DNA of 64,000 nt. It comes from Columba livia. Lineage: Eukaryota. The stretch is from positions 391,066 to 455,065 of the forward strand of contig NC_088636.1 of the NCBI RefSeq assembly GCF_036013475.1. The letters are read 5' to 3'. Shown here one piece after another: positions 28,830 through 64,000 of the stretch. The notes below the pieces were generated by a model. The model was not told the DNA's origin. It ran no database searches and worked only from the letters and a program-made list of their open reading frames with translations. The stretch's first letter is position 1. Each line of letters opens with the position of its first letter. The position numbers and the translations under genes are program-made.

Positions 28830-29900
28830 GGGAAATTTGGACATTTTCAAAGTTTCGAACGTTTGAAAGTCGAAATTTTTCAAATTCTCCAACTTTTCGA
28901 AATTTTCAAATCCCAATTTTCAAATTTCCAAAGTTTCCAACATTTTAAAATTCTGATTTTTCAGGTTTGAAAATTAAAAAATGGGGATTTAAAACTTGAA
29001 AAGTTTGAAAATTTAAGAATTGGGATTGGAAAATTTTGAAAAGTTTGGAAATTTGAAAATTGGAATTTAAAAATTTTGAAAATTTTTTAGAGTTTGAAAA
29101 TTGAAAAATTGGGATTTGGAAATTTTGAGACGTTTGAAAATTTAAAAATTGGGATTTAAAAATCTTGAAAGTTTAAAAATTTATAGCTTAGAATTTTAAA
29201 AAGTTTGGAATTTTAAGAATTAGGATTTGAAAATTTGGAAAAGTTTGAAAATTTAAAAGTTGGGGTTTAATAATTTTGAAAAGTTTGGAAATTTGAAAAT
29301 TACAATTTTAAAATTTTGAAAAGTTTGAAAATTTAGAAGTTGGGATTTAAAAATTTTGAAAAGTCGGAATTTAAAAAATGAAAAGTTTGGAAATTTAAGA
29401 AGGAATTTTAAATTTTTGAGAAGTTTGGGAATTTGAGAATTGGAATTTAAAATTTTGGAAAAGTTTGAACATTTCAAAATTGGGATTTGAAAATTTAGTA
29501 AATTTGGAAAGTTTGGAAATTTGGAAATTTAAAAATTTTGGAAAGTTTGGGAATTTGAAAATTGGAATTTTGAAAAAATAAGAAGTTTGGAAAGTTTGAC
29601 AATTGAAAAGTTTAGAAATTTAAAAATAGGGATTTAAAAATTTGGAAAAGTTGGAGAATTTTAAAATTGGGATTTTAGGATTTTGAGAAGTTTGAAAATT
29701 TCAAGTTTGGGCTTGAAAAATTTGGAAAAGTTTGAAAACTGGAAATTTAAAAATGAAAAAGACAATTTGGTGGTTTTAAAACTTAAAAAATGTGGAAAAT
29801 TAAGAATTTCAGTGAAAATTTGAAACGTTTTGGAAATTTGGAAAATGCCCAAATTTAAATGTGAAAATTTTCAAAGTTTTGAAAACGTTGGGAGTTTGAA
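28830..29900. repeat. AT-rich tandem satellite, about 30-40-bp unit (TTGAAAATTTAAAAATTGGGATTTGAAAATTT)
   Basis: An abrupt drop in GC content directly 3' of TAOK2. Confidence 0.85.
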
Positions 29901-30640
29901 ATTTGAAGATTTTGGGAAAAGTTTCAAATTTACAAATTTTTGAATTTTGAACCGTTTTTCAAATTCAAAAATTTTCAAAAAGTTGAAAAATTTGAGATTT
30001 TTTCCAAAAACGCAGAAATGGGAACAAGAATTTGGGGCAAAAACGGGCGATTTGGGCGTTAAAACAATTGGAGGCGAAAGGGGGAATTTTGGGGATAAAA
30101 GGTCGAATTTTGGGGCCCCAAAATCCACAATTTGGGGCAAAATCCCCAATTTTGGGGCAAAAGGAAAGAATTGGGCCTTGAAAACTCACATTTTGGGGCT
30201 AAAAACTCTAATTTTGGGGGCAAAAAGGCTGAATTTGGGGACTTGAACCCCCCGAATTTTGGGGCGGGAAACCCCCGATTATTTTGGGGCCAAAAATCCC
30301 TGATTTGGGGGCGAAAAAAAAACCCCAAATTTGGGGCCCAAAATCCCGAAATTTTGGGGCAGAAAACTCTAATTTTGGGACCTGAAAACTCCCAATTTTG
30401 GGGCCGGAAAGCCCAATTTTGGGGGCACAAAACTCTAATTTTAGGGGCGAAACGCCCCAAATTTTGGGGCAGAAACGCTCGATTTTGGGGCAGAAATGGG
30501 TCATTTTGGGGCCGGAAATCGACGCATTTGGGACCCAAAACCCCCCAATTTGGGGCCAAAAACCCCAAATTTGGGGTCAGGGACCCCTCCCCCCCCAAAA
30601 AATTTGGGGCAGTTTCTCCCTTTTCCATCATTTTGTGTCA
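29900..30640. repeat. Tandem satellite, about 20-bp unit (CAAAATTTTGGGGCAGAAAAC family)
   Basis: Regular copies. Confidence 0.8.
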
Positions 30641-58195: not shown

Positions 58196-58295
58196 CCCGG
58201 GGGCTGATGGGTTGTCCCCCTCCCAGCGCCACCAGTGTCACCAGTGCCAGCAGCAGCACCTGCAGTGGGGACGTATGGGGACCTATAGGATCCAT
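58196..58295 (-). CDS. MFAP4: Microfibril-associated glycoprotein 4, exon 1 (start codon and signal peptide)
   Basis: Minus-strand ATG at 58295-58293. The translation is MDPIGPHTSPLQVLLLALVTLVALGGGQPISPR, which has an n-region, a hydrophobic core and a GGG cleavage region. The exon ends at a GTGAGA donor in phase 1, matching the 2-nt start of the next exon. Confidence 0.65.
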
Positions 58296-60060
58296 GGGGG
58301 GGTCGGGGGGTCCCTATAGGATCCATAGGGGTGTCTGGGGGTTCCTATAGGATCCATGGGGGGGTCGGGGGGTCCCTATAGGATCCATAAGGGGTCCATA
58401 TAAGATCCATAGGGGGATCTGGGGGTTCCTATAGGATCCATAGGGGGGTCGGGGGGTCCCTATAGGATCCATGGGGGGGTCTGGGGGTCCCAATAGGATC
58501 TACAGGAGGTCCCTATAGGATCCATAGGGGGTCAGTTTGATCACTATAGGATCCATAGAGGGTCCCTATAGGATCCATAGGGGGTCCCTATAGGATTCAT
58601 AGGGACGTCTGCGGGTCCCCATGGGATCCATAGGGGGATCCCTATAGGATCTATGGGGGACAGGATTTTGATCCTTATAGGACCCATAGGGGGCTCTGGG
58701 GCTCCCTGTAAGATCCGTAGTGGGGGGGGTTGATCCCTATAGGATCCATAGGGGGATCTGGTGGTCCCTATAGTATCTATAGGGGGGTCTGGGGGTCCCT
58801 ATAGGATCCATACGGGGGTCAGGGGGTCCCTATAGAATCCATAAGGGGGTCTGGGGGTCCCTATAGGATCCATAGGGGGGTCTGGGGTCCCTATAGGATC
58901 CATAGGAGGTCCCTATAGGATCCATAGGGGGTCCATATAAGATCCATGGGGGTGTCTGGGGGTCCCTATAGAATTCATAGGGGGTCCACATAGGATCCAT
59001 GGGGGGGTCTGCGGGTCCCTATAGAATCCATAGAGGGGTCTGGGGTCCCTAGAGGATCCATAGGGGGTCAGGGGGTCCCTATAGGATCCATAGGGGGGTC
59101 AGGGGGTCCCTATAGAATCCATAGGGGGTCCATATAAGATCCATAGGGCGTTGGGGGGTCCCTATAGAATCCATAGGGGGGTTTGGGGGTCCCTATAGGA
59201 TCCATAGGGGGTCCCTATAAGATCCATAGGGGGTTGGGGGTCCCTATAGAATCCATAGGGGGGTCTGGGGGTCCCTATAGAATCCATAAGGGGGTCTGGG
59301 GGTCCCTATAGGATCCATAGGGGGTCCCTATAAGATCCATAGGGGGTTGGGGGTCCCTATAGGATCCGTAAGGGGGTCTGGGGGTCCCTATAGGATGCAT
59401 AGGGGGGTCTGGGGGTCCCTATAGGATGCATAGGGGGTCCCTATAGGATCCATGGGGGGTCCATATAAGATCCATAGGGAGGTCTGGGGTCCCTATAGGA
59501 TCCATAGGGGGGTCGGGGGGTCCCTATAGAATCCATACAGGGGTCTGGGGTCCCTATAAGATCCATAGGGGGTCCTTATAATATCCATAGGGGGGTCGGG
59601 AGGTCCCTATAGAATCCATACGGGGGTCTGGGGGTCCCTATAGGATCCATGGGGGGCCATATAAGATCCATGGGGGGGTCAGGGGGTCCCTATAGAATCC
59701 ATAGGGGGGTTTGGGGATCCCTATACGATCCATAGGGAGTCTGGGGTCCGTATAGGATCCATAGGGGGTCCCTATAAGATCCATAGGGGGTTGGGGGTCC
59801 CTATAGAATCCATAAGGGGGTCTGGGGGTCCCTATAGGATGCATAGGGGGTTCCTATAAGATCCATAGGGGGTCGGGGGTTCCCTATAGGATGCATAGGG
59901 GGGTTTGGGGGTCCCTATAGGATCCATGGGGGGTCCATATAAGATCCATGGGGGGGTCTGGGGGTCCCTATAGGATCCGTAAGGGGGGTCTGGGGTCCCT
60001 ATAGGATGCATAGGGGGGTCTGGGGGTCCCTATAGGATGCGTAGGGTCCCCATAGGATCC
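58270..60060. repeat. Tandem satellite, about 30-bp unit (CCCTATAGGATCCATAGGGGGGTCTGGGGGT)
   Basis: About 60 copies, immediately upstream of the MFAP4 ATG, followed by a degenerate tail at 60300-60880. Confidence 0.9.
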
Positions 60061-60889
60061 CGGGTGTCCGTCCGTCCCGCCCGTACCTCCGTCCGTCCGT
60101 CCATGGCGCCGCAGCCGCTTCCCCCCCCGCCCCCATCGGGGCCCCTCCCCGGACGCCTGGGTCCCCTCCCGGACGCCTGGGTCCATTCCCGGACGCCTGG
60201 GTCCCTTCCCGGACGCCTGGGTCCCCCCAGCCCAGGGAGGCCCCGATGGGGGAAACGGCCCCAAACGGGCCATTTTGAGGCGGATTTGATGGTTTGAGAG
60301 GGGAAAAAAAGCCACTTTACAGCCACTTTTCTATAGGGGAAACGCCCACATTACACATTCTATACATTCTATACATTTTGCAGGGAAAACCTCCCTAAAA
60401 TCGCCATTTTTATAGGCAAACCCCCCCAATCGTGCCACTCTATAACAAATACACCTTTAAATCCGCTTAATCTATAGGTGACGCGCCCTTAAACGCGTTT
60501 ACATTCAGCCTATATACATTAAACTTTAAGTGCCGTTGCTCTATAGGGGAAACCCCCTAAATCTGCCCCAAAATGCGAAATACGCCTTAAATCCCGCCCT
60601 ATTTACACAACGTATGCATTAATTGTGTTTTCTGCGCGCGATACGCCCCTAATTCCCCTTTTCTATACGTTATATACCCCATAACTTATCTTTCTATAGG
60701 GGAAACGCCCTTAGGTTGGTCCCTGAAGGGGCCGTGGGCAAAACTTGGCTCCCTATAGCAAATATACCTTTAAATTTGCCCGGCTATAGGTCCAGGGCTT
60801 AGCTCCGCCCCCTATATATGTATTTCTATACGTACATAGTTTAATACTTACGTAATGTTTTATATATATATAAAAGTTTTGCCCCCCCC

Positions 60890-61150
60890 CCCCGGCCTCC
60901 TCACAAGATGGCGGCGCCGCGCGGGGCACGCTGGGAGTTGTAGTCCCGCCCCCTCGCCCCTCAGTGTTCCTCAAGCCTGGGCGGACTACAACTCCCAGCG
61001 TGCACCGCGCCGGGCAGCCGCGGCGGCCGCCACAAGATGGCGGGCGGCGCGCGGTGCACGCTGGGAGTTGTAGTCCGCCTAGCCGTTAAGACTATAGGGT
61101 GGGCGGGGCTTGAGGACTACATTTCCCGGCGTGCCCCGCGCTTCCGCGCT
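60890..61150 (+). promoter_or_regulatory. CpG-island promoter with a duplicated YY1 + ZNF143(SBS) module
   Basis: A YY1 core CACAAGATGGCGG occurs at 60903-60915 and 61031-61043. ZNF143/Staf-type motifs ACTACAACTCCCAGCGTGC occur at 60926-60946 (reverse), 60983-61005 (forward), 61054-61076 (reverse) and 61115-61136 (forward, ACTACATTTCCCGGCGTGC). The region is GC- and CpG-rich. Confidence 0.55.
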
Positions 61151-61321
61151 GACTTCCGGCGCTCGGCCTGGACCGGAAGAGAAGGCGGGGGCGCGCGCGT
61201 GGCGTCGCCTCTTCGCGTCTCCTCGGGTTTATTTTGGTTTTAATTCGTTTTTTGGCTTCGAAAGCACAAAAAAGGACCAAAAAAAGGGTGAAAAACCCTC
61301 AAATCGGCGGCAGCGGAGCCG
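61150..61321 (+). other. Putative non-coding first exon of an unidentified plus-strand gene, with a GTGAGG donor at 61322
   Basis: A unique, ATG-free segment follows the promoter and ends in ...GGCGGCAGCGGAGCCG|GTGAGG. The rest of the window downstream is satellite. Confidence 0.35.
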
Positions 61322-61329
61322 GTGAGGAC

Positions 61330-64000
61330 CCGGGGGGGGGTTTTTGGGGGGTTTTGGGGCCGTTGGCGGCGGTTGGTTGGGGGGGGAAAATGGCGGTTTG
61401 AGGGGAAAAAGGGTTAAAAAAGGGGGTTTTGTGAGGAAAAATGGCGATTTTGAGGGAAAAATGGGCGTTTTGTGAGGAAAAATGGGGGTTTATGAGGAAA
61501 AGTGGGGGGTTTTGGGGGGAAAAATGGGGTTTTAGGGGGAAAAATGGGGGGTGGGGGGGGCGGGGAAATGGCGCGCGGAAAAGGGGCTTTTTTGGGGGGA
61601 AAAAACGGGGTTTTTGGGGCTTTGTGAGGGGGAAAGGGGGGGACGGGGGATTTGGGGTGAAAAAGGGTGATTTTGGGGGCGATTTGAGGTGAAAAAGGGG
61701 CATTTTGAGGTGAAAAAGGGGCATTTTGAGGGGGGAAAGGGGCATTTTTTGGGGGGGAAATGGCGGTTTGGGGGGAGATTTGAGGAGAAAATTGGGGTTT
61801 TTGAGGGAAAAAGTGGAATTTTTGGAGGGGAAAAGTGGGAAGTTTGGCGGGAAAAGGGGATTTTGAGGGGAAAAAGGGAGTTTTGGGGTTTATGGGGGAA
61901 AACGTGAGGAGAAAAGGGGATTTTGGGGGGGAAAAGGGCGATTTTGGGGGCGGGTTTGAGGCGGGAAAATGAGGGAAAATTGGAGGGTTTTAGGCCAAAA
62001 AAAAATGAGGTTTTTAGGTAAAAAAATGAGGGTTTTGGGCAAAAAGATCTTTGGGGCAAAAAAAGGGAGTTTGGGGACAAAAATTTGAGATTTGGGGGTA
62101 AAAAAAGTGAGAGTTTTAGGCAAAAATTGGAGATTTGGGGGCGAAAAATGCGAATTTGGGGCAAAAAAATTGAGGTTTTGAGGCGAAAAAATTCGAGGTT
62201 TTGGGTCAAAAGGAATTTGAGGTTTTTGGGCCAAAAAAAGGAGGTTTTGGGGTGCAAAAAATTGAGTTTTTTTGGGGGAAAAAGTGAGATTTTTAGGTAA
62301 AAAATAAGAGATTTTTAGGCAAAAAAGTTTGAGGTTTTTAGGCAAAAAAACTTGAGATTTTTAAGGCAAAGAAGTTGAGATTTTGGGGCAAAAAAGAGAG
62401 ATTTGGGGGCAACGAAAAAAGGGATTTTTGGCAATAAAAAAGTGAGATTTTTGAGTGAAAAAATTGAGATTTTTAGGCAAAAGAAATCGAGATTTTTGGG
62501 GAAAAAATTGATTTTTTGAGGCAAAAGAAAATCGAGATTTTGGGGCAAAAAAGTTGAGATTTGGGGGTAAAAAAATAAGGTTTTTGGGCAAAAAAAACCA
62601 GTTTTAGGTGAAAAAAATTTGGGGTTTTGAGCAAAAAAAAAAAAAAAGGAGATTTTGGGTGAAAAAATTGAAGTTTTTAGGCAAAGTAAATGGAGATTTT
62701 TGGGCAAAAATGATATTTTTAAGGCATAAAAGTGGGGTTTTTAGGGGAAAAATGGGAGGTTTTTGGCCAAAAAAAAGAGGTTTTTGGGACAAAAAAAGTG
62801 AGGTTTTTAGGTGAAAAAAATGAGGTTTTTAGGGCAAAAAATTGAGGGTTTTGGGTTAAAAATTGAGGTTTTTGGGTGAAAAAATTGAGGTTTTTAGGTT
62901 AAAAAATTGATGTTTTTAGATTAAAAATTGAGGTTTTTGGGGCAAAAAATTGAGGTTTTTGGGGCAAAAAAGTGAGATTTTTAGGTTAAAATTGAGGCTT
63001 TTAGGTGAAAAATTGAGGTTTTTAGGTTAAAAATTGAGTTTTTTGGGGCAAAAAAGTGAGATTTTTAGGTTAAAAAATTGAGGTTTTTAGGGCAAAAAAT
63101 TGAGATTTTTGGGTTAAAAAATTGAGGTTTTTGGGTTAAAAAATTGAGGTTTTTAGGTTAAAAATTGAGGTTTTTAGGTTAAAAAATTGAGGTTTTTAGG
63201 TTAAAAATTGAGGTTTTTAGGTTAAAAATTGAGGTTTTTAGGTTAAAAATTGAGGTTTTTAGGTTAAAAAATTGAGGTTTTTGGGGCAAAAAATTGAGAT
63301 TTTTGGGTTAAAAAATTGAGGTTTTTAGGTTAAAAAAATGAGGTTTTTGGGGCAAAAAATTGAGATTTTTGGGGCAAACAAGTGAGGTTTTTAGGCCAAA
63401 AAATGAGATTTTGGGGGGCAAAAAATGTTGAGATTTTGGGGTTAAAAAATGGAGATTTTTAGGTAAAAATAATTGAGGGTTTTGGGCCAAAAAAATGAGG
63501 TTTTTTGGGCAAAAAAGTGGGATTTTGGGGCCAAAAAAAGTAGGATTTTTTGGGTGAAAAAATAGTGGGATTTTTGGGGGCAAAAAAGTGAGATTTTGGG
63601 GCCAAAACGTGGGGTTTTTAGTTCAAAAAGAGAGACTTTTTGGGTCAAAAAAGTGAGGTTTTGGGGCTGAAAATGTGAGGGTTTTGGGCCAAAGAATTGG
63701 GGTACGGGGGGGAATGGGGAGAAATGGGGGGGGGAATTGGGGGTGCAGGGAGGAACCACGGGGTGAAATGGGGGGGGAATTGGGGTGCAGGGAGGAACCA
63801 TGGGGTGAAATGGGGGGGGAATTGGGGTGCAGGGAGGAACCACGGGGTGAAATGGGGGGGGAATTGGGGGTGCAGGGAGGAACCATGGGGTGAAATGGGG
63901 GGGGAATTGGGGGTGCAGGGAGGAACCATGGGGTGAAATGGGGGGGGAATTGGGGGTGCAGGAGGAACCATGGGGTGAAATGGGGGGGGAATTGGGGGTG
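61330..64000. repeat. A/G-rich tandem satellite, about 20-bp units (GAAAAATGGGGGTTTTGAGG / AAAAATTGAGGTTTTTAGGTT)
   Basis: It starts directly after the putative exon-1 donor at 61322 and continues to the end of the window. Confidence 0.85.

Follow-up and report, generated by a model that had tools for sequence, protein, structure and literature searches.

Duplicated ZNF143/YY1 motif module at the probable promoter of pigeon SRRM2, conserved across five birds

We analysed a 64-kb stretch of Columba livia microchromosome DNA (the window), in which tandem repeats take up 85% of the sequence; an MFAP4 match at 100% identity marks the DNA as Columba livia. The genes in the window are ordered TAOK-like (+), CDIPT (+) and MFAP4 (-), followed by a probable promoter island, and this agrees with the order SRRM2, MFAP4, CDIPT, TAOK in cuckoo and parrot. 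MFAP4 is separated from the island by a degenerate AT-rich repeat (60227-60890) that does not contain a CpG island. Scanning the whole 64-kb window for non-coding RNAs returned no tRNA and no Rfam family at gathering score. The repeat arrays of the window show strong GC skew of either sign regardless of gene orientation, and GC skew is therefore uninformative here for the direction of transcription.

The island holds four full 25-nt SBS2-type ZNF143/THAP11 motifs and two YY1 cores, which are organised as a repeated unit with a period of 129-131 bp (Table 1). Using the SBS pattern ACTACANNTCCCRGCRNGC with at most one mismatch, we searched the whole 64 kb and obtained exactly four matches, all within this module, at 60926-60944 (-), 60985-61003 (+), 61056-61074 (-) and 61116-61134 (+), whereas 100 dinucleotide shuffles averaged 0.00 matches (maximum 0). 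Likewise, the YY1 pattern CACAAGATGGCGG occurs exactly twice in the window, at 60902 and 61031, where 0.14 occurrences are expected. The YY1 motif is given in the literature and in JASPAR as AAGATGGCGGC, which is matched at 11/11 positions at 60905-60915 and at 10/11 at 61034-61044, with both cores in sense orientation to SRRM2 and upstream of its likeliest presumed transcription start site (TSS). A motif scan of the promoter for CTCF, NRF1, CCAAT, CRE and E-box motifs found none, and a CTCF-like string with one mismatch proved to be merely the YY1-B core. All four SBS matches extend to the 25-nt SBS2 form, with ACTACAN directly 5′ of the 18-bp SBS1 (TTCCCA...TGCA..GCG); 19-21 of the 25 positions are identical, in register, to the published probe ACTACAATTCCCATTATGCACCGCG (PMC3627581), and the RRACTACAN prefix, as in PMC3082894, is present in every one of them.

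The SBS2 sites alternate strictly in orientation at a spacing of 59/71/60 bp, and in both copies of the unit the YY1 core lies 4-5 nt from the tail of the reverse site. A preliminary description, made from the letters of this DNA, had proposed a module of roughly 128 bp present twice (60903-61005 and 61031-61136), each copy with a YY1 core, a reverse SBS and a forward SBS. Both the duplication and this composition hold, while the offsets between copies (129, 130 and 131 bp for three element pairs) revise the period to about 130 bp and the units to about 60902-61010 and 61031-61141. The two copies align at 81% identity, mostly contributed by the motifs. The SBS sites fit the published SBS2 and not the 20-nt consensus quoted in the description, ACTACAAYTCCCAGCARTGC, which has an extra base between TCCCAG and TGC.

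Table 1. Positions in the window of the promoter module, the putative first exon of SRRM2 and the neighbouring MFAP4 mini-exon. Identities are to pigeon across the other birds compared.
Feature	Position	Strand	Remarks
MFAP4 annotated first coding mini-exon (MDGRTE, donor GTACGG), head-to-head neighbour	60087..60104	-	pigeon protein P0001 starts MDGRTEVLLLALV
YY1 core A, CAAGATGGCGGC	60904..60915	+	exact match; 96% identity across four other birds
SBS2 site revA, minus-strand reading ACTACAACTCCCAGCGTGCCCCGCG	60920..60944	-	20/25 vs published probe; cross-bird identity 83%
Spacer A, GC boxes 60946-60951 (-) and 60979-60984 (+)	60945..60984	.	conserved only 39%
SBS2 site fwdA, ACTACAACTCCCAGCGTGCACCGCG	60985..61009	+	21/25 vs probe; cross-bird identity 81%
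YY1 core B, CAAGATGGCGGG	61033..61044	+	cross-bird identity 81%
SBS2 site revB, own-strand 25-mer identical to that of fwdA	61050..61074	-	cross-bird identity 91%
Spacer B, GC box GGGCGGGG at 61101-61108	61075..61115	.	conserved 46%
SBS2 site fwdB, ACTACATTTCCCGGCGTGCCCCGCG	61116..61140	+	cross-bird identity 75%; decayed in finch
ETS/GABPA-type cluster: CGGAAG 61141-61146 (-), CCGGAAGT 61152-61159 (-), CCGGAAG 61173-61179 (+)	61141..61180	.	
Putative non-coding exon 1 of SRRM2	61150..61321	+	no ATG, conserved donor, SRRM2 next gene in three birds
Near-invariant block CGCGCGTGGCGTCGCCT	61194..61210	+	88% identity across birds vs flanks 24-54%
Splice donor GTGAGG	61322..61327	+	GGAGCCGGTGAG common to cuckoo and parrot
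Start of putative intron 1	61330..64000	+	full of G-rich ~21 bp tandem repeats; continues past window end

We compared the pigeon, as reference, with cuckoo, goose, parrot and finch, together representing five orders. The module occupies the orthologous position in all four of the other birds, and its four-site form is present there in cuckoo, goose and parrot, with a spacing of 59/69-71/58-60 bp in cuckoo and parrot and of 60/70 bp among the three matched sites in goose. The gap between YY1-A and its SBS2 is constant in four of the five birds, being 1 nt shorter in goose, and that between YY1-B and its SBS2 is constant in the four non-pigeon birds, with the pigeon gap 1 nt longer. In the five-bird footprint, identity to pigeon is 75-96% for the motifs and 34-54% for the spacers; for the SBS2 sites compared with spacers A and B the values are 75-91% vs 39-46%, placing motif conservation above that of the flanks. 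Besides the motifs, the block GCGTGGCGTCGCC, an ETS site and the donor GGAGCCG/GTGAG have been kept. In the alignment, all five birds have a CGGAAG 9-22 nt 5′ of the conserved block, and the block itself is likely a TSS-proximal or 5′UTR element. The 130-bp unit of YY1, reverse SBS2 and forward SBS2 was duplicated before the Neoaves/Galloanserae split, with selection afterwards on the motifs and not on the spacers. The locus is a clean natural case of an ancient promoter duplication in which only the motifs were conserved, four SBS2 and two YY1 sites having been kept while the spacers drift, and it could serve as a test bed for adjacent-site sharing by ZNF143, THAP11 and YY1. A candidate TATA element, (TA)n/TATAAAAG at 60859-60876, ~30 bp 5′ of YY1 core A, lacks conservation in the other birds, and we treated it as repeat-derived.

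The SBS2 sites lie 180-400 bp upstream of the conserved donor of the putative exon 1, for which the start at 61150 is a guess placed just downstream of fwdB. The GT of the donor occupies 61322-61323, which makes 61321 the last base of the putative exon. The stretch 61137-61322 is free of ATGs, and within 60890-61322 they are confined to the two YY1 cores; both the donor and the ATG-less exon had been named in the preliminary description. The CpG richness that it ascribed to the exon is seen in 60900-61230 (GC 0.70-0.73, CpG observed/expected 1.0-1.35) but does not extend to the 3′ half, which is A/T-rich like the downstream repeats, is conserved at 24% and looks repeat-derived. The donor is 83-94% conserved in cuckoo and parrot, compared with just 24% for the remaining exon. 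Of the putative intron 1, the window covers the first 2.7 kb, and a tblastn search of the pigeon window for the SRRM2 ATG exon gave only noise, with E-values of at least 3. From the other birds, this exon, with ATGTACAATGGGATAGG (MYNGIG) behind an acceptor, is predicted on the + strand of the pigeon scaffold at about 65-66 kb.

SRRM2, identified by its cwf21 N-terminus, is the gene that follows on the same strand in cuckoo, goose and parrot, where its ATG exon lies 4-4.5 kb downstream. Homologues of the peptide at the start of this gene carry PF08312 (cwf21) and are named SRRM2, and the matches in this protein search were short cwf21 fragments, with no full-length chicken, human or pigeon protein among them. 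In cuckoo the acceptor of exon 2 lies 24 nt ahead of the SRRM2 ATG. SRRM2 encodes the nuclear-speckle/spliceosome protein SRm300. The conserved module, the position of SRRM2 as next gene in three birds, the conserved donor and the lack of an SRRM2 ATG exon in the window support the earlier suggestion that a housekeeping-type gene starts here and has its body outside the window. As judged from sequence features, the region is probably a TATA-less CpG-island promoter together with the untranslated first exon of pigeon SRRM2, and it is most likely an ordinary housekeeping promoter, notable for a twice-repeated ZNF143/YY1 motif block kept in five birds. A promoter and a gene identity can with this be placed on an almost unreadable microchromosome stretch, where the comparison of birds told a functional promoter island apart from the repeats.

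ZNF143 stimulates initiation from binding sites located upstream of TSSs (PMC11754675), and SBS2 is common to ZNF143 and THAP11/HCF-1 (PMC3627581). At the putative SRRM2 promoter, ZNF143 would bind the four SBS2 elements and stimulate initiation, with THAP11/HCFC1 also expected to bind their ACTACA part. In the predicted layout, YY1 would sit beside the tail of each reverse SBS2, with GC boxes between the paired sites and an ETS (GABPA-type) cluster directly following fwdB, the last SBS2. Pol II would most likely start within the ~80 bp that follow fwdB, close to the ETS sites and the GCGTGGCGTCGCC block, and the transcript would reach the donor at 61322, from where exon 1 would be spliced across a ~4 kb repeat-filled intron to the ATG exon outside the window. 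Since YY1 motifs in this orientation usually lie just downstream of a TSS (PMC11754675), there may be additional or alternative start sites 5′ of each YY1 core, giving a longer exon and two short uORFs. The putative promoter resembles SBS2-type ZNF143/THAP11/HCFC1 promoters (M4 motif ACTAYRNNNCCCR; Ngondo-Mbongo et al. 2013, PMC3627581; PMC5006282) in the 25-nt ACTACAN plus 18-bp SBS1 and in being the CpG promoter of a ubiquitously needed gene, and the published model permits multiple sites per promoter. The pigeon region differs in that its four alternating putative sites are arranged within a tandem duplication, and in that every reverse site has its own YY1 core at a fixed spacing, an arrangement kept in birds. 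A literature search for a connection between ZNF143 and SRRM2 found no relevant paper.

Besides SRRM2, the reverse SBS2 sites and the YY1 cores could also drive the minus-strand MFAP4 or an upstream antisense RNA like SRRM2-AS1, which would make the promoter truly bidirectional, a possibility that the preliminary description had also raised. Such a role adds to the SRRM2-promoter explanation and is not exclusive of it, and while bidirectional use of the module is plausible, we consider it less likely than not. Head-to-head bidirectional promoters are defined by divergent TSSs less than 1 kb apart. In pigeon, the annotated MFAP4 ATG at 60104 (-) is separated from YY1-A by about 800 bp and from the presumed SRRM2 TSS by ~1.05-1.1 kb, and the distance from ATG to module is about 740 bp in cuckoo and about 460 bp in parrot. 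However, the MDGRTE mini-exon is missing from the MFAP4 models of other birds and may be a prediction artefact, in which case the pigeon distance grows to about 2.6 kb. Furthermore, the AT-rich degenerate repeat between the module and MFAP4, rather than a CpG island, argues against divergent use, no conserved minus-strand exon or donor was seen beside the module, and MFAP4, as an extracellular-matrix gene, is no obvious co-regulated partner for a housekeeping gene. In favour of divergent use, a single SBS suffices for bidirectional activity (PMC3082894), two Pol II peaks flank SBS2 loci (PMC3627581), and human SRRM2-AS1 shares a complementary stretch of 160 nt with the SRRM2 5′UTR (PMC12953307). 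Bidirectional promoters are enriched for ACTACANNTCCC, YY1, GABPA, NRF1 and NFY motifs (Anno et al. 2011, PMC3082894), of which the pigeon region has three of five (SBS/ACTACA, YY1 and ETS/GABPA), along with a head-to-head neighbour at an ATG-to-module distance of 0.46-0.8 kb in pigeon, cuckoo and parrot. Unlike those promoters, the SRRM2 module has no NRF1 or CCAAT motif, and its partner would be a tissue-type matrix gene.

A more speculative reading, which we consider unlikely, takes the conserved duplicated arrangement, in which a YY1 core is followed after 4-5 nt by a reverse SBS2 and, beyond some 40 bp that include a GC box, by a forward SBS2, as a dedicated switch and not a pile-up of activators. 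ZNF143/THAP11 on the reverse SBS2 would occlude or expose YY1 and so choose among two or three start sites, or adjust the ratio of SRRM2 to divergent MFAP4 or antisense transcription. ZNF143 sites that occlude an adjacent YY1 have been described at LYSMD1, GMPR2 and ZNF583 (PMC11754675), and in pigeon the YY1 core likewise adjoins a ZNF143 site in both copies, a likeness read from the motifs; the difference is that the composite is duplicated in the SRRM2 promoter. If such a switch exists, its function would depend on the strict alternation of the sites and on their 60-70 bp phasing, and Rfam 'miRNAs' such as mir-5408 and mir-1805 would have arisen elsewhere as by-products of this kind of palindromic promoter architecture.

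The inverted SBS2 pairs might instead have been kept for hairpins, as a TSS-proximal hairpin RNA, a miRNA-like precursor or a DNA cruciform, and not for protein binding. The pigeon hairpins are indeed very stable (-68, -95.9 and -63 kcal/mol; z-scores -8, -12 and -6), and there are sub-threshold Rfam matches to mir-5408, mir-1805 and mir-1990. The consensus sequences of mir-5408 (RF04264) and mir-1805 (RF03779) hold inverted ACTACA...TCCCA-like arms, resembling the pigeon revA/fwdA and fwdA/revB pairs. However, the scores are 41 bits against a gathering threshold of 90 for mir-5408 and 30.7 against 64 for mir-1805, below half in each case, and the pigeon sequence is not a member of either family. 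The cuckoo hairpins are far weaker (z-scores -6.5, -1.3 and -3.3), and in cuckoo, goose and parrot the arms mismatch each other at 5-10 of 25 positions without compensation. Covariation beyond column composition is absent in the birds, with 85.8% paired cells vs 83.9% in shuffles (28/500 as high) and six double changes vs 4.0 expected. On these low scores, weak cuckoo hairpins and missing covariation we rejected a hairpin or miRNA as a most improbable account; the hairpins are a by-product of the inverted motifs.

Equally hard to credit is an origin of the module from a dispersed repeat or retroelement that carried SBS2, leaving a remnant with no promoter role, even though mammalian MLT1J retroelements contain SBS2 motifs (PMC3627581) and the island is surrounded by repeat-saturated DNA, since the module is unique within the 64 kb, occupies one syntenic position in all five birds, with conservation specific to the motifs, and adjoins a conserved donor and the SRRM2 ATG exon. 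Although Staf/ZNF143 was originally defined on snRNA and Pol III type-3 genes, a distal sequence element of such a gene (U6, 7SK, tRNA-Sec, RNase P RNA or Y RNA, the classical targets) is effectively refuted, as the entire window has no Rfam family at gathering score and no tRNA, snRNA-type families do not appear around the site even at E<=1, and these genes have a single SBS1 without ACTACA where pigeon has four SBS2 (PMC3627581).

Outside birds, in a mammalian SRRM2 promoter (Logan contig L003, SRR15041666), a YY1-like site and three SBS2-like sites in forward orientation precede the ATG exon by about 3.3-3.8 kb. The mammalian promoter is comparable to the probable pigeon promoter in belonging to the same gene, in having a non-coding exon 1 and an intron 1 of about 3-4 kb, and in the placement of its YY1-like AAAATGGCGGC upstream of several ACTACA-type SBS sites. 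Unlike in pigeon, the three sites all point forward at irregular spacing (2240, 2456 and 2507), without the 130-bp duplication and without inverted pairs. At the cobra locus, SBS-like pairs are found ~1.8-2.2 kb upstream of the SRRM2 ATG exon.

Direct reading of positions 60500-62000 confirmed the observation made in the preliminary description, as all of the elements it listed are present. The ACTACA-type ZNF143 pattern ACTACANNTCCCRGCRNGC, with up to one mismatch, has four matches in the 64-kb window, every one within the duplicated module, and had none in 100 dinucleotide-preserving shuffles. Exactly two copies of the YY1 string CACAAGATGGCGG are present (60902 and 61031), compared with 0.14 expected. 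Using a repeat finder we detected three element pairs offset by 129, 130 and 131 bp, and inverted repeats with arms of 28-43 nt formed by adjacent sites, while pairwise alignment showed the two units to be 81% identical, mostly within motifs. In both copies the YY1 core lies 4-5 nt from the tail of the reverse site.

Two forms of ZNF143 site have been described, the 18-bp SBS1 and the 25-bp SBS2, the latter composed of ACTACAN followed by SBS1 (Ngondo-Mbongo et al., PMC3627581), with its ACTACANNTCCCA part being the THAP11/HCF-1 site (PMC3627581). When taken at 25 nt, the four pigeon sites agree in register with the published SBS2 probe ACTACAATTCCCATTATGCACCGCG at 19-21 positions, including the 3' TGCACCGCG, and the RRACTACAN prefix (PMC3082894) is found in all four. 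The 20-nt consensus originally proposed carried one surplus base between TCCCAG and TGC, a slip in the consensus that leaves the observation unaffected. Three of the four pigeon sites are mutually identical at 24-25 of 25 positions (21/25 for fwdB, the forward site of the second unit), and those of cuckoo, goose and parrot differ mutually at 5-10 of 25 positions; the likeness in pigeon suggests that, in this lineage, the sites were either homogenised recently (gene conversion) or optimised convergently.

Features of the window and of orthologous loci (identities are to pigeon, as means over the four other birds in the five-bird alignment)
Feature	Position	Strand	Basis	Identity
TAO-type (TAOK-like) kinase exons	~9.9-18.8 kb	+	six-frame reading of small unique islands	
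CDIPT exons	35.4-37.2 kb	+	six-frame reading of small unique islands	
MFAP4 exons	45.3-58.3 kb (to 60.1 kb with mini-exon)	-	six-frame reading of small unique islands	
ZNF143 pattern match	60926-60944	-	ACTACANNTCCCRGCRNGC, up to one mismatch	
ZNF143 pattern match	60985-61003	+	ACTACANNTCCCRGCRNGC, up to one mismatch	
ZNF143 pattern match	61056-61074	-	ACTACANNTCCCRGCRNGC, up to one mismatch	
ZNF143 pattern match	61116-61134	+	ACTACANNTCCCRGCRNGC, up to one mismatch	
YY1-A	60904-60915		five-bird alignment	96%
YY1-B	61033-61044		five-bird alignment	81%
Four SBS2 sites			five-bird alignment	75-91%
Two intra-pair spacers			five-bird alignment	39-46%
Upstream flank			five-bird alignment	34%
Block CGCGCGTGGCGTCGCCT	61194-61210		five-bird alignment	88%
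Rest of exon			five-bird alignment	24%
Cuckoo sites (locus coordinates)	9036, 9095, 9164, 9224	-, +, -, + (alternating)	pattern match	
Parrot sites (locus coordinates)	9332, 9392, 9463, 9521	-, +, -, + (alternating)	pattern match	
Goose sites			three matched	
Darwin's finch sites			two matched; remaining two recognisable in alignment	

We assigned the gene by means of the MFAP4 loci of other birds (cuckoo, goose and parrot). In cuckoo a divergent 2211-aa gene is followed by MFAP4, CDIPT and the kinase, which is the order of the window, and the first coding exon of the divergent gene starts alike in cuckoo, goose and parrot. Homologues of its N-terminal peptide match Pfam PF08312 (cwf21) and are named serine/arginine repetitive matrix protein 2 by their sources. 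The distance from the module to the ATG exon is 4-4.5 kb in all three birds, and in cuckoo an acceptor (cccccgcag|G) is found 24 nt 5' of the ATG, as a non-coding exon 1 would need. The 64-kb pigeon window lacks the SRRM2 ATG exon, consistent with the mere 2.7 kb of intron visible there. The earlier interpretation, that of a housekeeping-gene promoter whose gene body lies beyond the window, is supported, and by conserved synteny SRRM2 is the gene that the module would serve. In Darwin's finch (Camarhynchus parvulus, contig L005, 20961-28223) the gene after MFAP4 has a PAXIP1_C domain (PAGR1-like) and is not CDIPT. This difference from pigeon, cuckoo and parrot reflects either a local rearrangement or a gap in assembly or annotation.

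The four-site module was found at the orthologous place in cuckoo, parrot, goose and Darwin's finch, with sites spaced by 59/69-71/58-60 bp in pigeon, cuckoo and parrot, and by 60/70 bp among the three matched in goose. Among the five birds, goose alone departs from the common YY1-A to SBS2 spacing, being 1 nt shorter, and pigeon alone from that of YY1-B to SBS2, being 1 nt longer; the other four agree in each case. The donor region is 94% (cuckoo) and 83% (parrot) identical to that of pigeon, and a CGGAAG (ETS) can be read from the alignment 9-22 nt 5' of block CGCGCGTGGCGTCGCCT in all five birds. That the module is kept across birds places the duplication before the Neoaves/Galloanserae split, and it has been maintained since at the level of binding motifs. 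The element is a well conserved further example of a well-known promoter type, and its sole unusual feature is that, in an ancient tandem duplication, the motifs have been preserved and the sites alternate in orientation. Block CGCGCGTGGCGTCGCCT itself is near-invariant across the five birds, and no transcription-factor motif was matched to 61194-61210; a loosely similar GGCGTCGG follows a GAGGAAG at ~2633-2655 of the mammalian contig L003.

Evidence beyond birds is looser, and comes from one mammalian contig and one cobra locus. The mammalian contig contains the SRRM2 ATG exon and, ~3.3-3.8 kb 5' of it, a CpG-rich region in which AAAATGGCGGC is followed by three forward ACTACA-type sites and then a donor. 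In the cobra locus, SBS-like pairs, weaker here, and a YY1-like site precede the ATG exon by 1.8-2.2 kb. Multi-SBS2 control of SRRM2 therefore looks to be amniote-wide, although the regular duplicated inverted layout is clear only in birds.

The module is most likely a TATA-less promoter, for which we infer both occupancy and TSS position. Motifs of the ACTACANNTCCC, YY1 and GABPA types are typical of bidirectional and housekeeping promoters (PMC3082894), ZNF143 stimulates initiation, typically from a binding site 5' of the TSS (PMC11754675), and SBS2 sites are used jointly by ZNF143 and THAP11/HCF-1, the latter modulating output (PMC3627581). The four SBS2 sites, GC boxes and ETS cluster would recruit the machinery, with initiation in the ~80 bp 3' of the last SBS2, and transcription may alternatively start a short way 5' of each YY1 core. 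Positions immediately 3' of TSSs are enriched in YY1 motifs, which a neighbouring ZNF143 can occlude (PMC11754675); since the 4-5 nt YY1-SBS2 spacing is near-fixed across birds in both copies, an interaction between YY1 and ZNF143 is likely, either cooperative or by occlusion. The CpG island spans ~60900-61230 (GC 0.70-0.73, CpG observed/expected at least 1.0). As previously described, the putative exon 1 is ATG-less, with none from 61137 to the donor GT at 61322, and ATGs in 60890-61322 are confined to the two YY1 cores.

It is plausible that the promoter is bidirectional, as one SBS suffices to drive transcription both ways (PMC3082894), MFAP4 lies head to head with the module, and human SRRM2-AS1 overlaps the SRRM2 5'UTR (PMC12953307). 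The joined MFAP4 exons are 100% identical to the Columba livia 'microfibril-associated glycoprotein 4-like', and the pigeon protein starts with MDGRTE, a 6-codon mini-exon at 60087-60104 (-) followed by the donor GTACGG, which places the annotated start codon ~800 bp from YY1-A. Tandem CCTATAGGATCCATAGGGGG-type repeats make up the 1.8-kb intron (58282-60060) between the mini-exon and the signal-peptide exon. MFAP4 models of other birds begin within the signal-peptide exon (ME...), and the mini-exon may therefore be either confined to pigeon or an artefact of prediction.

It is unlikely that the inverted SBS2 pairs instead encode a hairpin or miRNA. The pigeon hairpins are very stable (z-scores -6 to -12), and a permissive Rfam search returned sub-threshold hits within 60923-61082, on both strands, to mir-5408, mir-1805, mir-1990, MIR1151 and mir-324. 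However, mir-5408 (41 bits against a gathering score of 90) and mir-1805 (31 against 64) reach less than half of their thresholds, the cuckoo hairpins are much weaker, and pair counts across the five birds showed no covariation beyond column composition. Moreover, sites in cuckoo, goose and parrot differ at 5-10 positions without compensation, which, set against the high identity in pigeon, suggests pigeon-specific homogenisation and not selection for structure. The mir-5408 and mir-1805 consensus sequences themselves have inverted ACTACA...TCCCA-like arms, formed by GGACUACAACUCCCAUAAUGC with an inverted copy of the same and by an inverted GGAGUUGUAGUC/CACUACAGCUCC pair, respectively, so that palindromic ZNF143/THAP11 promoter sites may account for some of the catalogued miRNA hairpins. 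A small-RNA gene was rejected, with no Rfam family at gathering score and no tRNA in the window, and snRNA-type genes use single SBS1 sites (PMC3627581).

Tandem repeats form 85% of the window by TRF masking; their many different units range from 9 to 330 bp, GC skew is strong and may be positive or negative, and the module lies within the largest unmasked island (60227-61415). Unique islands are short and many are exons, and satellite arrays fill the introns, a pattern expected of GC-rich microchromosomes in birds. The AT-rich spacer (60227-60890, GC 0.41-0.46) that separates the module from MFAP4 exon 1 is made up of degenerate 'TCTATAGGGGAAACNCCC...TAAAT' units, and has the look of a decayed satellite, not of unique sequence. 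A (TA)n run that terminates in TATAAAAG (60859-60876) lies ~30 bp 5' of YY1-A, a TATA-to-initiator-like distance, within AT-rich degenerate repeat, and is not kept in the other birds of the alignment. In its 3' half (61211-61309) the putative exon 1 is A/T-rich and unconserved (24% identity), and short strings such as AAAAAGGGTGAAAAA recur in the 21-bp repeat of the intron, as though the repeat had invaded the exon but spared the donor. Finally, 29001-30000 has a GC of 0.22 and a GC skew of +0.75 amid 55-70% GC, with low-complexity (K/F/N-rich) ORF translations, and is probably an AT-rich satellite.
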